From a virus (Duplodnaviria > Heunggongvirae > Uroviricota > Caudoviricetes): a stretch of 8,235 nucleotides of DNA. The stretch's first letter is position 1. Each line of letters starts with the position of its first letter. The notes below the pieces were generated by a model. That model was not told the DNA's origin. It ran no database searches and saw only the letters and a list, made by a program, of their open reading frames with translations. Both the position numbers and the translations under genes were made by a program. Of this stretch, positions 2 through 7,938 are shown in pieces. Location: the IMG/VR virus record IMGVR_UViG_2651869696_000011. One strand, given 5' to 3'.

Positions 2-478
2 AAGCAGAAAAAGCTTATTATGCTTCCATCGGAAACGATGATCTGGCAGCCTGAGTTCACAGATAAAACACTCTCCAGGAAACCCGGGGCGGTTCAGGCC
101 GCCGGTCGTTATATTCGTTCGCATGAAGCCGTTCAGCACATCAGCATCCGCGACCGGCTGAATGATTTTATGCAGCAGCACGGCACAGTACTGGCGGCCG
201 CACTGGCACCGGAGCTGATGGGCTACAGTGAGCTGACGGCCATTGCCCGAAACTGTGCCATACAGCGTGCCACAGATGCCCTGCGTGAAGCCCTCCTGTC
301 CTGGCTTGCGAAGGGTGAAAAAATTAATTATTCCGCACAGGATAGCGACATTTTAACGGCCATTGGATTCAGACCTGACGCGGCTTCGGTGGATGACAGC
401 CGTGAAAAATTCACCCCTGCGCAGAACATGATTTTTTCGCGTAAAAGTGCGCAACTGGCATCACGTCAGTCTGTGTAA
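2..478 (+). CDS. psu: Psu-like polarity-suppression / capsid-decoration protein, C-terminal ~158 aa; 5' end lies outside the window
   Basis: Reading frame is open from the window edge (no stop between position 2 and the first ATG at 20), stop at 476-478. It is immediately upstream of, and transcribed toward, the cos site, as psu is in P4. Identity is inferred from context and recalled similarity to P4 Psu, not from an alignment. Confidence 0.55.
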   Translation, partial: KQKKLIMLPSETMIWQPEFTDKTLSRKPGAVQAAGRYIRSHEAVQHISIRDRLNDFMQQHGTVLAAALAPELMGYSELTAIARNCAIQRATDALREALLSWLAKGEKINYSAQDSDILTAIGFRPDAASVDDSREKFTPAQNMIFSRKSAQLASRQSV

Positions 479-514
479 AATTCCCCGAAAATCCGCCCGT
501 TTTTACTGAAAAAA

Positions 515-543
515 GCCATGCATCGATAAGGTGCATGGCTTTG
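515..543 (+). terminator. Putative rho-independent terminator downstream of the psu-like gene
   Basis: Perfect 8-bp stem gccatgca (515-522) / tgcatggc (532-539) with a 9-nt loop, followed by tttg; lies 37 nt after the stop codon. Confidence 0.45.
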
Positions 544-569
544 CATGCGTTTCCCTGCCTCATTTTCTG

Positions 570-597
570 CAGACCGCGCCATTCCCGGCGCGGTCTG
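570..597. other. Perfect 11-bp stem-loop in the cos-proximal spacer
   Basis: cagaccgcgcc (570-580) / ggcgcggtctg (587-597) with the 6-nt loop attccc; no T-tract follows, so it is not a classical terminator. Possibly part of the terminase recognition region near cos. Confidence 0.4.
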
Positions 598-642
598 AGC
601 GTGTCAGTGCAACTGCATTAAAACCGCCCCGCAAAGCGGGCG

Positions 643-661
643 GGCGAGGCGGGGAAAGCAC
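643..661. other. P2/P4-type cos cohesive-end sequence (cosN)
   Basis: Exact 19-nt string ggcgaggcggggaaagcac, which I recall as the cohesive-end sequence shared by P2, 186 and P4. It lies between the psu-like gene and the integrase-proximal cargo, as in P4. Confidence 0.6.
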
Positions 662-724
662 TGCGCGCCCGGTTGGTGCTCGTTACTAATGTTTTTTGCG
701 CCCGAGCACCGTCGGGAAGGGGCT

Positions 725-733
725 GGGGGGGGG
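725..733. repeat. G9 homopolymer inside a G-rich run (711-750: ggg, gggg, ggggggggg, gggg)
   Basis: Read directly from the sequence; the tract spacing fits a canonical G-quadruplex motif. Intergenic. Confidence 0.5.
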
Positions 734-896
734 ATAGGGGAGGTGCCTGACGTCGCGCGGTAATGTTGGTAAGTGTGCCGCTGATGGCTTCTGAGGGGAG
801 TGGTAAATAGCCGCCTTTCGACGGTGTAGTGGGGAGAGTATTGCTTACAAACGTAATGAAATTGTTTGAGTAGCTAGGCTACTGCATAGGATTATT

Positions 897-925
897 TTGT
901 TCTGTTAATATATCCGTTAATATAG
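897..925 (+). promoter_or_regulatory. Putative promoter and tandem 9-bp direct repeat upstream of the cargo operon
   Basis: gttaatata repeated at 904-912 and 916-924 (12-bp register); ttgttc (897-902) and atatag (920-925) are a possible -35/-10 pair with a 17-nt spacer. Lies in the AT-rich leader about 35 nt before the start codon at 959. Weak, sequence-only call. Confidence 0.25.
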
Positions 926-958
926 ATAGATTGATCCAATTGAGTTTAAGGAATGAGT

Positions 959-1342
959 ATGTTTCAGATATCAGCTGGAGTGTTCTTTGATTTAGATAAA
1001 ATAGAAAAACACGATGGCACATTTGTTTTTTATTCAAATGTTGATGTGTCTTTCTCGGTGGAAAACACCTCCCCTCTTTTTAAAGCAAATAAAATAAGTC
1101 ATGATGGTATAAACTGTTATGTGGTAAACTATACTCTCCTGACCGAAAAACCAGAACGAATTGAAGCTGGAGTCGTAGTTAGGGCTGGTGATGAGGATTA
1201 TAGGCAACAATTTATTTTATTATGGGAATTCTATTTTGATTGTGTGGCTAGAGTAGAAAAAGAATCGGTTAAAAAATATGTGCATTATCAAATTTTAATA
1301 AACATCACTCAAAAATTGCGCTTGAAGTTGCCCCATATTTAG
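959..1342 (+). CDS. Hypothetical protein (127 aa), first gene of the AT-rich cargo operon
   Basis: ORF 953-1342; the second in-frame ATG at 959 has a good SD (aagga at 947-951, 7-nt spacer), whereas the ATG at 953 is too close to it. AT-rich codon usage. No family recognised. Confidence 0.6.
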   Translation: MFQISAGVFFDLDKIEKHDGTFVFYSNVDVSFSVENTSPLFKANKISHDGINCYVVNYTLLTEKPERIEAGVVVRAGDEDYRQQFILLWEFYFDCVARVEKESVKKYVHYQILINITQKLRLKLPHI

Positions 1343-2661
1343 TGGAGATTAACCGAAGAGTTTCATTTGATGATGTCTCTGGGTTTTCTGCTTTTATTAA
1401 AGATGTAGTGAATCTAAATAGATCTGCCTTTAAATCTTTAATGGCAGCGTTAAAAATAATTAGTGATTCAAAAGAATCATTGTCAACCAACTTTGACCTG
1501 ACTTATTCCATGTTAGTCTATGCCTTGGAGTCTTTGTCTCAAAGAAATGATAACTATAAGTCTGATTGGGATGACTACGATCAAAAAACCAGAGGTGAAT
1601 TAGAGTCTGTATTTGAGCATATGCCTGGTGAGGATGTTTGTAAAATTAAATCAATACTTATTGAAGGCAAACAATTCAGATTACAAAAAAGGTTCAAAGA
1701 TTTTATACTGAAAAATCTTGAAGAAAATTATTTCAATGAAACAGAGAGATATCCAATCCGCTATAGCTTCCTTAGTAGAGCTTTAGATAATTTATACAAA
1801 ATCAGGTCTTCTTTTGTCCATGAGCTTAAGCCACTTGATGCAATGATCTCGAAAGCCTACAATCCTGTTGGTGATTGTCTGGTTCTTTTTGGCGAACCTC
1901 ACTTCAGTTACTCTGGATTGCTTCGACTTCTTCGCCATGTGATAATAAATTTTTGCCGTAAAAACTACAGTCAAAAAAGAGAGTATGTTAATTGGGTGAT
2001 GGAAACATCGGGTGTAATGGTTGCAGAGATATCTGCACAATATTGGCTCTGGAATGCAGACGGATTTACAGCTAAAAGTATAGCGAAGTGGTTTAGTGAA
2101 TACCTAAATATGTTAAATTTAGGCGAAGTCACTGATTTGCAGTCTATCATGGACAAAATTGAGATAATCTATGACCAATCCAAAAAAGAATATAAAAATG
2201 GGTTGTTGTATTTTTATTTCTTATATAACTTAATGCATAATGGAAATAAGGGTGAATGGCTTGAGTTTGCGAACAAGCGAAGTTCTATACTTGTTTGTGA
2301 TATATATTGGTATTCATGCTCTCCATATTTATATAAATCATTTACTAATGTTTCAAATGGTATTGCTGATATAAAAACATTGAGAAACTTTTTGTCTTGT
2401 TTTAACGAATATGATAAAAATAAATTTAAGCCAAATCGTTTAAATCTCCCTGCAATGACCGAAGTAATTATGTTGGCTTGCGCAGCAAATTCATTCTTCA
2501 GAATTGGAATGTATCAAGACTATGTTTTAATGGGCAATAGAGCGATGAGAGAAATTGCTTCAGTAAAAGATGTATTTTATTATATAAAAGAACGATTAAG
2601 TAATTCACAACTTATTGAATTGGACGAGTGCTTGAGATTGTATAGAAAAAAGGGGGGCTAA
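1342..2661 (+). CDS. Hypothetical protein (439 aa), second gene of the cargo operon; contains an Rx4H (HEPN-like) motif
   Basis: Long uninterrupted ORF with AT-rich codon usage. The only possible start before the first internal ATG (1441) is GTG at 1342, which overlaps the upstream stop (TAGTG) and has no clear SD, so the start is uncertain. The motif R-SSFV-H is at codons 155-160 (nt 1804-1821). Confidence 0.8.
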   Translation: MEINRRVSFDDVSGFSAFIKDVVNLNRSAFKSLMAALKIISDSKESLSTNFDLTYSMLVYALESLSQRNDNYKSDWDDYDQKTRGELESVFEHMPGEDVCKIKSILIEGKQFRLQKRFKDFILKNLEENYFNETERYPIRYSFLSRALDNLYKIRSSFVHELKPLDAMISKAYNPVGDCLVLFGEPHFSYSGLLRLLRHVIINFCRKNYSQKREYVNWVMETSGVMVAEISAQYWLWNADGFTAKSIAKWFSEYLNMLNLGEVTDLQSIMDKIEIIYDQSKKEYKNGLLYFYFLYNLMHNGNKGEWLEFANKRSSILVCDIYWYSCSPYLYKSFTNVSNGIADIKTLRNFLSCFNEYDKNKFKPNRLNLPAMTEVIMLACAANSFFRIGMYQDYVLMGNRAMREIASVKDVFYYIKERLSNSQLIELDECLRLYRKKGG

Positions 2662-2669
2662 CCCCTTTT
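2648..2669. terminator. Putative bidirectional terminator at the convergent junction of the cargo gene and the integrase
   Basis: 8-bp stem aaaagggg (2648-2655) / cccctttt (2662-2669) with the 6-nt loop ggctaa, A-tract on one side and ttttatttttaa on the other. Both stop codons (2659-2661 plus strand, 2658-2660 minus strand) lie in or beside the loop. Confidence 0.4.
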
Positions 2670-3854
2670 ATTTTTAACGTATTCACCCCACCAATCCATC
2701 AATTCAATTCGCTGCACGAGATAAGTAGAACGATTGTATGCTTTTCTAACTTCATTTTTATCACTGTGGGCTAAGGCAGACTCGATAACATCAGGATTTA
2801 ATCCAGCTTCATTCATGGCTGTACTTGCTATTGAACGTAATCCATGGGCAACTAATTTTCCGCCAAAACCAATACGTTTTAAAGCTGCATTTGCAGTCTG
2901 ACTGTTCATTGGTTTCTTTGGGTCATTCCGACTCGGAAAAACATATTCACGATGAGCACTAATAGGCTTCATCACATTAAGAATCTCTAATGCCTGAGAT
3001 GATAGAGGAATTATGTGTTCCCGTTTAGCCTTCATCCGTTCGGCAGGAATCGTCCAGAGCTTTGCATGAAGATCGATTTCTTCCCACCGAGTACTGGAGG
3101 CTTCAGAAGGGCGCACAAGAGTCAGGAGTTGCCATTCAATTAGACAGCGAGTCGGGATAGACAGATTTGACATGACTAAAGAACGCATCAGCTTTGGTAA
3201 TTCTTCAGGTCGAAGCGTCGGCATGTTTTGTTTTTTTGGCTTTTCGAAGGCCATGCCAACACCTGATGCTGGGTTTGCATCAATCAAGCCAGTGTTAACC
3301 GCATAAATCATTATTTCGTTAATGCGTTGCACCAGACGACGTACAGTCTCTAATGCCCCACGAGCTTTGACTGGCTCAAGTGCTTCGACCAATGTTCTAG
3401 CTTTGATCTGCTGAACGGGCATCTCACCAACGGCGGGGAATACATCTTTTTCCAATGAGCGCCAAATATCTTTTGCATAATCAGGGGTAACACTTTTGCT
3501 TTTGAGCTGAAACCAATTAGCGGCGACCGTCGAGAAAATACTGTCCTGTGCGATTTGCTGCTGTTCCTCTGCAATTTCAGCTTGAATTTGCGGGTCAATT
3601 CCGTTGGCTAACAAGGAAAGGTAATCCGCTCTTAAGCGTCGGGCGTCAGCAAGTGAAAGGGCTGGGAAGGCTCCTAGCCCCATCATTGTCCGTTGCTTTG
3701 TTGCCGGACGTTGATAACGGAAACGCCATAACTTCTTACCGTTCGTTTTAACGAGTAGAAAAAGACCATCGCCATCATGCAACGTTAGATCCTTTTCTAA
3801 CGCTTTAGCGCGCAGTACTTCTGTGTTGGTCAGGGGGCGTGTCGTTCTTGCCAA
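2658..3854 (-). CDS. int: P4-family tyrosine integrase (CP4-57 IntA-like), 398 aa
   Basis: N-terminus MARTTRPLT...DGDGLFLLV...LWRFRYQRP and C-terminal HGLRSIAST...ALAH...VRKAYNRSTYLVQR are characteristic of P4-type integrases. Its 5' end faces the ssrA-derived att core, the usual tRNA/tmRNA-int arrangement. Confidence 0.9.
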   Translation of the reverse strand: MARTTRPLTNTEVLRAKALEKDLTLHDGDGLFLLVKTNGKKLWRFRYQRPATKQRTMMGLGAFPALSLADARRLRADYLSLLANGIDPQIQAEIAEEQQQIAQDSIFSTVAANWFQLKSKSVTPDYAKDIWRSLEKDVFPAVGEMPVQQIKARTLVEALEPVKARGALETVRRLVQRINEIMIYAVNTGLIDANPASGVGMAFEKPKKQNMPTLRPEELPKLMRSLVMSNLSIPTRCLIEWQLLTLVRPSEASSTRWEEIDLHAKLWTIPAERMKAKREHIIPLSSQALEILNVMKPISAHREYVFPSRNDPKKPMNSQTANAALKRIGFGGKLVAHGLRSIASTAMNEAGLNPDVIESALAHSDKNEVRKAYNRSTYLVQRIELMDWWGEYVKNKRG

Positions 3855-3884
3855 TTTGGCCGCTCCTTCATGAATTGGTATACG

Positions 3885-3935
3885 CGTTTAGGTATACATC
3901 CTACCGTATACCTAAACGTATACCAATAATCACTG
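3885..3935. promoter_or_regulatory. Imperfect inverted repeat in the integrase leader (candidate operator or integrase/IHF binding sites)
   Basis: Arms ttggtatacgcgtttaggtatac (3885-3907) and gtatacctaaacgtataccaa (3915-3935) are reverse complements apart from a 2-nt cg insertion; gtatac half-sites recur four times. Lies 30-80 nt upstream of the integrase start codon. Confidence 0.45.
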
Positions 3936-3973
3936 GATTTAGCTGGATATCCTCGGACAACGGTAGACACAAA

Positions 3974-4005
3974 AAAGCCCGCAGAGCTTGTGCTATGCGG
4001 GCTTT
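3974..4005 (-). terminator. Rho-independent terminator (minus-strand sense) downstream of the tmRNA 3'-end copy
   Basis: Stem agcccgca (3976-3983) / tgcgggct (3996-4003) with a 12-nt loop; on the minus strand it is followed by a run of six T (complement of aaaaaa at 3971-3976). Confidence 0.5.
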
Positions 4006-4038
4006 CAGGATTTCTCCGGACGTATCCGGAAGAGCAAG

Positions 4039-4065
4039 TGGTGGAGCTGGCGGGAGTTGAACCCG
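4039..4065 (-). other. Attachment-site core: 27-nt copy of the ssrA (tmRNA) 3' end without the rest of the gene
   Basis: tggtggagctggcgggagttgaacccg is the reverse complement of the tmRNA 3' terminus (...CGGGUUCAACUCCCGCCAGCUCCACCA). The match breaks off at 4066 and the sequence to the right is an AT-rich protein-coding gene, so this is a partial att repeat, not a functional ssrA. Confidence 0.7.
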
Positions 4066-4103
4066 TGTCTGAAAAATATTAACCTGTTGTTTTAATTATA
4101 TAT

Positions 4104-4883
4104 TTATCTGAACATGGCGTTTGCGGCGCTTTTGCGTATCTTCTCTAGACCTTTTGTAGTCCATTTCTCTGGTACAGGTGTAAACCGTAGTGCAAAATCT
4201 GCCTCCATATTATCACCACTGAAACGTGCCACTCCACGTTCCAATTTTGTTTGCCAAGTGACTTTTTTAGTTTTACCCTCTATATCTTGATATTCAATAA
4301 TTAATTTTGGACCAGTGAATGATGAAGAACCGACTAATTTAAGTCTATGTGAAAGATATGCTATATTCAATAGAATATCAATTGCCGCGGTTGGTACAAA
4401 AATGTTTTTTGACTTCTTATCTATACTATATGGTAACGAAAAATCAATATCGTAAGGTGTCGATAAAGTATTGTACATATATACTTTTCTTTCTTTTATT
4501 ATTTTGAATATTCCATACTGGGAGTCGGTTGTAAAAGATTTATCTTCTTTTTTGAATTTTTTCGAAAACAACTCTAAATATAGATTTATGTTTTTTTTAT
4601 AATTAAAATCCCAATGATATCTAAGTGAAATTGCCGCCCCCAATCCTATGTTTGAAAATTTTGTTTGTGGAAGCGTAGGGGCTTGTAAGATATCAACATG
4701 AAAACCGTTGAAATCGTTAACATTCATCTTGATATTTAAAGTGTCTATCACTAAATTGGGTTTATAAGAGAGCCTTCTTTGAAATATCGTTAACCATATT
4801 GCATATAATGCAGCAATTGCTGAAATGAAAGTACCAACTGAAGATATGTAGGTGATTAGTTTGTCGAATGTAATTGTAATCAA
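4104..4883 (-). CDS. Hypothetical membrane-anchored protein (259 aa), a moron between integrase and att
   Basis: Strongly AT-rich ORF with a predicted N-terminal transmembrane helix (ITYISSVGTFISAIAALYAIWLTIF). The only start upstream of the first internal Met (codon 53) is TTG at 4881-4883, preceded by GGGGA at a 7-nt spacing. No family recognised. Confidence 0.65.
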   Translation of the reverse strand: MITITFDKLITYISSVGTFISAIAALYAIWLTIFQRRLSYKPNLVIDTLNIKMNVNDFNGFHVDILQAPTLPQTKFSNIGLGAAISLRYHWDFNYKKNINLYLELFSKKFKKEDKSFTTDSQYGIFKIIKERKVYMYNTLSTPYDIDFSLPYSIDKKSKNIFVPTAAIDILLNIAYLSHRLKLVGSSSFTGPKLIIEYQDIEGKTKKVTWQTKLERGVARFSGDNMEADFALRFTPVPEKWTTKGLEKIRKSAANAMFR

Positions 4884-7425: not shown

Positions 7426-7545
7426 TTCGTTCTCCACTTTATATGCGCTGCACTGCGCTGAATTTTGGGAAAAGGAAGCCCTCGCCATCCGGCGATTATT
7501 AAGCAATTACGTTTCAATAGATGCCCCCGCAGGGGCGGTTAGTTT

Positions 7546-7740
7546 CTCCACAAAACAGAGAAGAACACCTGCGGTGACCGCCGCCCGGATGGATTGGGTT
7601 ATGAGCCCGTCGTCCGGTGATGCTCTTCTCTGTTTTGTAAAAAGAGCGGTACCAGCCGGAAGCAAGGGTACAAACTGGTACCGCCAGGACTACACACAGC
7701 ATAAAGTTGTGGTGCCGGGTGCCTCCCGGTGCCTGGCGAA
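7546..7740. other. GC-rich structured non-coding region (candidate ncRNA or cis-regulatory element)
   Basis: 15-bp inverted repeat acaaaacagagaaga (7550-7564) / tcttctctgttttgt (7624-7638) enclosing 59 nt. Perfect 10-bp hairpin gcggtaccag (7646-7655) / ctggtaccgc (7675-7684) with a 19-nt loop. Three ggtgcc direct repeats (7711-7733). The region is open in several frames on both strands with no RBS-supported ORF, which is typical of GC-rich non-coding DNA. Confidence 0.4.
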
Positions 7741-7938
7741 GGTTGCACACCAGACGGGTGGGTATCCACAGAAGGTCGACTGTCAGCCTCAACCTTAACC
7801 CGCGTGCGCTGAGCCGCATTCACCACAACGCTAAGGATTCTCTTTGGTTGAAAATACTTAGCTGTTATGTGCCTGTCTTTTCACCACTTCAGGCTCGGTG
7901 GTATCCTTTTAAGCCCGTATACATAAAAGGAAAATCAA

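Follow-up and report, generated by a model that had tools for sequence, protein, structure and literature searches.

Whether a short string that resembles a phage cohesive end is a true cos site, which element it belongs to, and what it says about the mobility of that element are the questions raised by the locus studied here. The window, by which we mean the whole stretch of DNA analysed (8,235 nt), comes from the draft contig JHTB01000077.1 (9,071 bp), or from a sister assembly with three differing positions, and this contig starts inside an insertion sequence (IS). An earlier note, made from the letters of the window, had recognised 643-661 as the cohesive end of P2 and P4, and had taken the element on the left of the window for a P4-like satellite able to be packaged by a P2-like helper and to spread its cargo.

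Identity of the cos Site

The sequence GGCGAGGCGGGGAAAGCAC was found as a single exact copy, at 643-661 on the + strand, with 0 mismatches, and the whole window contains no second site for it even when up to three mismatches are allowed. The P4 record (NC_001609/X51522) begins with this very 19-mer (bases 1-19), and the P2 record (NC_001895) has it at the stretches annotated as "cosL; left cohesive end" (1-19) and "cosR" (33575-33593), in agreement with the earlier note. A chance match in GC-rich intergenic DNA is hardly conceivable: nothing was found to speak for it, none of 200 dinucleotide-preserving shuffles yielded a match, again with up to three mismatches allowed, and the likeness covers 55 bp in the case of P2 and 549 bp in that of P4.

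The cohesive end lies within a 55-bp cos core common to P2 and P4 (614-668, + strand), the region of terminase recognition and cleavage, which reads TGCATTAAAACCGCCCCGCAAAGCGGGCG, then GGCGAGGCGGGGAAAGCAC, then TGCGCGC. Identity over this core was 54/55 with P4, 53/55 with P2, 49-53/55 with four more P2-family phages and 54-55/55 with three other E. coli P4-like satellites; from AAGCGGGCG through GCGCGC, it was invariant in all of the phages and satellites compared (9/9). An imperfect hairpin is located inside the core, at 624-643. At position 662, the window and P2 have T where P4 has C, while at positions 632-633 the window agrees with P4 and differs from P2. These are natural variants, present in intact satellites too, and count against the site only weakly. 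When the window, P4 and P2 were aligned with the cut site as anchor, the likeness between the window and P2 was confined to 614-668 and stopped on either side. The 55-bp cos has indeed been described as the sole homology between P2 and P4 (PMC9594776; PMC9122126), and circles of P4 are cut at this site to give 19-nt ends (PMC2231350); the figure of 55 bp goes back to Ziermann and Calendar (1990), as cited in PMC2231350 and PMC9594776. Judging from the ends of the records, the nicks would be placed at 642/643 on the top strand and at 661/662 on the bottom strand. An open reading frame that spans cos (531-689) was considered as a gene and rejected.

It is very probable that 614-668 is the cos of a P4-like satellite integrated beside ssrA, with 643-661 as its 19-nt cohesive end, and the identity and cis-integrity of cos in the window copy are near certain.

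The Left Flank and the Interruption of psu

The DNA to the left of cos is that of P4. In a megablast search of phage records, window 94-642 aligned to P4 11076-11624 at 98.4% identity, a match made up of the last 385 nt of psu and of the non-coding right end of P4, to the final base of the record. Since this match reaches the right end of the linear P4 record, window position 643 is the point where that record wraps to base 1. Together with the identities of the core, this flank bears out the likeness to the P2 and P4 cos regions implied by the earlier reading. Two perfect hairpins with 11-bp stems (512-542 and 570-597, + strand; inverted repeats I2 and I3) are found between psu and cos, in a stretch (512-597) that is kept in P4, being ~99% identical to its right end, and the hairpin at 512-542 looks like the psu terminator.

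The psu gene itself is interrupted. The window opens with the terminal 97 nt of an IS629/IS1203 element of the IS3 family (1-97, + strand), ending in the inverted repeat ...CCCGGGGCGGTTCA. This IS end is 97-100% identical to annotated IS629 copies of Stx phages and identical to the IS1203 end at comparison locus L002; its transposase is oriented so as to read towards psu, and the gene upstream on the sister contig (L008) carries rve and HTH_21 domains. IS629 splits psu at window 97/98 and parts codons 1-64 from the remainder, so that the 3' two-thirds of the gene, codons 65-190 of 190, are left beside cos (98-478, + strand, 98.4% to P4 11076-11460). As the Pfam Psu match of ORF 20-478 (3.9e-62) is limited to profile positions 59-181, psu is a pseudogene here, resuming at codon 65; the ORF is an IS/psu chimera of 152 aa, which is on record on two contigs.

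The trinucleotide GGC at 98-100 (psu nt 192-194) would be the 3-bp target duplication. From this duplication and the left end of IS629, we predicted the protein encoded at the reciprocal junction, namely residues 1-64 of Psu followed by AEPPRESWRLNSLRKR, 80 aa in all. The predicted protein (MESTALQQ...VNQAEPPRESWRLNSLRKR) exists exactly in public assemblies, on four contigs, the longest being 10,075 bp; the corresponding variant based on IS1203 of M25631H has no record there. That the reciprocal junction is on record argues for a plain IS insertion and not for a deletion. An exact search for the IS629/psu junction of the window among one-genome-per-species contigs gave no match; the junction was present in none of the complete E. 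coli genomes, and none of these covered at least 80% of the window.

A P4-Like Satellite Beside ssrA

The element to which this cos belongs can be read from its relatives. Strain NS-NP030 shows 5 differences from window 94-4074 in 3,981 nt aligned, and its satellite carries, to the left of psu, delta, sid, a helix-turn-helix regulator, icd/cI, epsilon, ORF151, DUF5375 and the alpha primase, and abuts a complete ssrA on the right. M25631H and GPEC1209 resemble it and have the whole P4 backbone (alpha, DUF5375, ORF151, epsilon, icd/cI, vis/alpA, sid, delta, psu). The full backbone of the near-identical NS-NP030 locus makes the P4-family assignment safe, and the satellite identity proposed in the earlier note stands, as alpha, epsilon, sid, delta and psu are carried by near-identical loci in complete genomes. 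In the source genome itself, sid, delta, alpA, epsilon, alpha and the distal att site are out of view because the contig starts inside the IS. Seven core components have been described for P4-like satellites (PMC8628076), and those present in the window are an intact integrase gene, encoding 398 aa, and psu, the latter a pseudogene though still 98.4% identical to P4. The elements psu, cos, cargo, int and att follow one another as they do in P4, with the hotspot between psu and int, which confirms the position that had been given to cos on the P4 map.

Might cos instead be the remnant of a P2-like helper prophage, given that the 19-mer and the core are common to P2-family phages and that the 140 nt to the right of the core are closer to the flank of this family than to that of P4? 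We consider this very improbable, because the left flank matches psu of P4 at 98.4% identity, the window holds no portal, terminase or other gene of P2, the right side leads to a P4-family integrase and att site, and the near-identical loci are complete P4-like satellites.

The integrase is an intact tyrosine integrase of the P4 family (2658-3854, - strand, 398 aa; Pfam Arm-DNA-bind_3, Phage_int_M and Phage_integrase), 36% identical to P4 Int (E = 1e-85) and identical, as a protein, to the integrase of NS-NP030. Upstream of int, a cluster of GGTATAC(G)/CGTATACC repeats (3874-3927; repeats I1, I3, I4 and D1) may possibly represent arm-type sites for Int or regulatory sites, by comparison with the annotated arm repeats of P4 attP. 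Further on, just downstream of ssrA, is the hairpin AAAGCCCGCAGAGC/GCTATGCGGGCTTT (3974-4005, - strand; inverted repeat I2). The ends of the NS-NP030 satellite share a direct repeat of ~50 nt (D2; L003 5010-5059 and 15862-15911 at the NS-NP030 locus), the two copies being 86% identical and 10,852 bp apart, and since the hairpin at 3974-4005 falls inside this satellite-end repeat, it marks a probable int-proximal att site. This att copy (about 3950-4005) is identical to its NS-NP030 counterpart and is the one copy in the window. The hairpin sequence is also kept in strain C1, beside a different island. In other strains, tandem P4-family integrases are found at the same hairpin downstream of ssrA (L003 3699-5059; L007 4680-6000), which indicates that the ssrA locus carries arrays of islands sharing att sequence.

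Beyond the att site, alignment to the int-ssrA junction of NS-NP030, where a complete tmRNA gene is annotated, revealed a displaced fragment of the 3' end of ssrA (4039-4074, - strand), in which 27 nt agree fully with ssrA and the next 9 nt contain 2 mismatches. This fragment marks the junction with a lambdoid prophage and is outside the satellite proper. No complete tmRNA was detected in the window, either by ARAGORN or with Rfam at gathering thresholds. The lambdoid prophage sits in the 3' end of ssrA and separates the satellite from the complete ssrA, which is outside the window.

From 4075 onward, the window consists of the left arm of this prophage, with an ORF of 259 aa (phrog_7259), int, xis (phrog_2917), small ORFs and a yfdR-like 5'-deoxynucleotidase gene. 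The 259-aa ORF (4104-4883) is placed between the att fragment and the prophage int; with respect to the sister contig, a T-run indel at 4591 is observed, and the ORF becomes a 124-aa call in L008. A GC-rich stretch, 7507-7930, is without a convincing ORF or Rfam match, and its counterpart in C1 and GPEC1209 is a frameshifted hypothetical gene near genes of the yfdQ/yfdP type. Relatives of the prophage continue into ymfK/ymfT immunity genes and a P27-family terminase. Use of cos by this prophage was also considered and rejected, its relatives carrying a small terminase of the P27 family.

The Right Flank of cos

The stretch from psu to cos was present in 1,049 of the 5,426 complete E. coli genomes, and its conservation ends at 668/669 in most of the E. 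coli P4-like matches listed. This position is the edge of the variable defence hotspot, which directly adjoins cos, as in Rousset et al. (PMC9122126) and as also reported in PMC8628076.

To the right of this edge, the window contains a flank specific to its cassette (669-812, + strand), which in anchored global alignment is distantly similar to the region between cos and gpQ in P2-family phages. Against the five such phages aligned (P2, P2-T22, 10W, vB_YpM_22 and PhiR44_1), z was 4.3-7.2 and 0 of 500 dinucleotide shuffles reached the score, whereas z was about 0 against P4 and the GPEC1209 satellite. The similarity to the P2-family flank amounts to ~60-65%. Free local alignment of the right flank to P2 was weak (z = 0.4-3.7), and a three-way MAFFT alignment misplaced the P2 similarity, which was significant in the anchored global alignment only. 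BLAST of 662-860 without the core returned 19 E. coli genomes, with identities never below 95% and, in 16 cases, a match across the entire flank, and hit no P2-like prophage; the cassette is thus rare, with 16-19 occurrences in 5,426 complete E. coli genomes. As neither free local alignment nor BLAST without the core detected it, the P2 likeness of this flank must be old or weak, and in view of the mixed alignment results we treat it as tentative. The ~140 nt to the right of the core are the one mildly unusual feature of the site, seeming to resemble the cos flank of the P2 family and not that of P4.

An origin of 669-812 in a diverged phage of the P2 family, from its cos-to-gpQ flank, would point to recombination at cos between helper and satellite; we consider such an origin unlikely. 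Helper-satellite recombination at cos was put forward as a speculation by Rousset et al. (PMC9122126), and gene-level exchange between helpers and satellites was almost absent in a 2026 survey. From a functional point of view, the right flank could lengthen the packaging signal past the 55-bp core and so raise packaging efficiency; longer cos flanks indeed gave better transduction of cosmids (PMC9594776).

Other particularities of this flank should be noted. It ends in a stretch that resembles the tQ terminator region of P2, and the G run at 725-733 is G9 in the window and G8 in both NS-NP030 and L008. The final 131 nt of the cassette flank (730-860) recur in strains XJ34 and XJ6-3 at 100% identity, in DNA annotated as lying within ypjA or next to it, which suggests a deleted satellite remnant fused to the ypjA region.

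The Cargo Gene of the Hotspot

The hotspot is occupied by one gene (953-2661, + strand), which encodes a single protein of 567 aa in relatives (NS-NP030 and M25631H) and has its counterpart at L003 12865-14568 at the NS-NP030 locus. In the window, this gene appears as two ORFs, 953-1342 and 1342-2661, as a result of a 1-nt deletion, the run at 1271-1276 being A6 instead of the A7 of NS-NP030 and M25631H; the split is identical in the sister contig. The change from A7 to A6 may stem from slippage or from a sequencing error in the homopolymer, or the gene may truly be a pseudogene. Table S1A of Rousset et al. (2022; PMC9122126) gives the proteins of the relatives (WP_088551761 and WP_074507673) as single occupants of the hotspot between psu and int, labelled "hypothetical". 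Sequence searches of Pfam (even at E = 10), PHROGs and PDB gave no match for the cargo protein. A weak match to the PADLOC Cas13-ApeA model was obtained (7e-6, residues 148-273), and the protein has an RSSFVH motif compatible with the Rx4H pattern of HEPN domains. On these sequence features, the 567-aa protein may be an uncharacterised ApeA-like abortive-infection nuclease.

Packaging and Mobility of This Copy

The way in which this cos would serve the satellite can be proposed by analogy with P4. In the presence of an active P2-family helper, the satellite would be excised by its own integrase between the two att copies, and would replicate as a circular molecule, about 10.9 kb long without the IS and about 12.2 kb with it. 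The helper terminase, gpM/gpP in the P2 family, would then recognise the 55-bp core on the circle and nick it 19 nt apart, at 642/643 and 661/662, and the linear satellite DNA would be threaded into a capsid derived from the helper. In the resulting virion DNA, psu would occupy the right end, and the cargo gene would lie some 290 bp in from the left end. Excision, replication, cleavage and packaging of this satellite are all steps that we infer.

The packaging substrate of P4 is excised closed circular DNA (PMC2231350), so that packaging also depends on int, vis, the two att sites and replication functions. Of these requirements, the window shows int and one att copy, and most of the others are outside it. 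The cos site is necessary for packaging but not sufficient. As far as can be read from the letters, the cis-acting cos signal is intact in the window copy, and that part of the earlier claim of a packageable element that spreads its cargo is sound: cos is genuine. The claim overreaches for this particular copy, in which psu is split by IS629 and the cargo gene is frameshifted, and cos alone, in view of these two changes, is no proof of mobility in the source strain.

It is indeed conceivable that cos is genuine but sits in a decaying satellite that can no longer be mobilised, as a recent fossil and not as a working packaging signal, a reading that we take seriously while holding it to be somewhat less than probable. 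Two disruptions are present within 4 kb, the IS629 in psu and the frameshift in the cargo gene, the latter in both assemblies of the lineage; the contig breaks at the IS, leaving room for rearrangement; the satellite no longer adjoins a complete ssrA because a lambdoid prophage stands between them; and functional P2 and P4 elements have been noted to carry almost no transposable elements (PMC13586616). Apart from the IS, however, only 5 differences in 3,981 nt distinguish this copy from an intact satellite, no change is seen in the cos core, in int or in the int-proximal att, and the reciprocal IS junction expected of a simple insertion is on record. Neither psu nor the cargo gene is required in cis for packaging, psu being dispensable for the growth of P4 in the older literature on this phage. 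A further point against packaging is the length added by the IS: at about 12.2 kb, compared with about 10.85 kb otherwise, the unit would exceed the 11.6 kb of P4 by ~5%. Whether the whole satellite of the window is still mobilisable is, in our judgement, an evenly balanced matter.

Comparison With Known Systems and Significance

The closest known system is P4 itself (NC_001609/X51522), with which the window element shares an identical cohesive end, a core identity of 54/55, a left flank at 98-99% from psu to the cut site, and the placement of cos between psu and the region of accessory genes and int. By contrast, from 8 nt to the right of the cohesive end onward, the P4 sequence is unrelated to the window; P4 carries gop, beta and cII in the hotspot, where the window element has one 567-aa gene, and the integrases are only 36% identical. 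P4 integrates at leuX, whereas the window element is found beside ssrA. With P2 and other Peduoviridae (NC_001895, 10W, vB_YpM_22 and PhiR44_1), the shared features are the identical 19-nt end, a core identity of 49-53/55 and a distant colinearity of the ~140 nt to the right of the core with the cos-to-gpQ flank; the left flank of P2 is unrelated, and the window is without P2 structural or terminase genes.

At ssrA, E. coli K-12 carries CP4-57, a cryptic P4-like prophage with a P4-family integrase. The window element would differ from CP4-57 in its closeness to P4 itself at psu and cos, and in the full backbone of its relatives. The arrangement is also that of the published psu-int hotspot, with psu, cos, a variable cassette and int in this order and conservation ending a few bases past cos (PMC9122126; PMC8628076); the window copy differs from it by the IS629 in psu and the frameshifted cargo gene.

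The finding of cos is in itself already known, since it belongs to textbook P4 biology, and both the hotspot adjacent to cos and the cargo protein have been published (Rousset et al. 2022, PMC9122126; de Sousa and Rocha 2021, PMC8628076). Its importance beyond annotation is thus small, the cassette being already catalogued. If the stretch 669-812 did derive from a P2-family phage, it would be a physical record of helper-satellite recombination at cos. The cos site marks the left element of the window as a P4-family satellite and sets the boundary of its hotspot at 668/669, and, in accordance with established biology, it accounts for the spread of the neighbouring cargo gene in E. coli populations by means of P2-family helpers.
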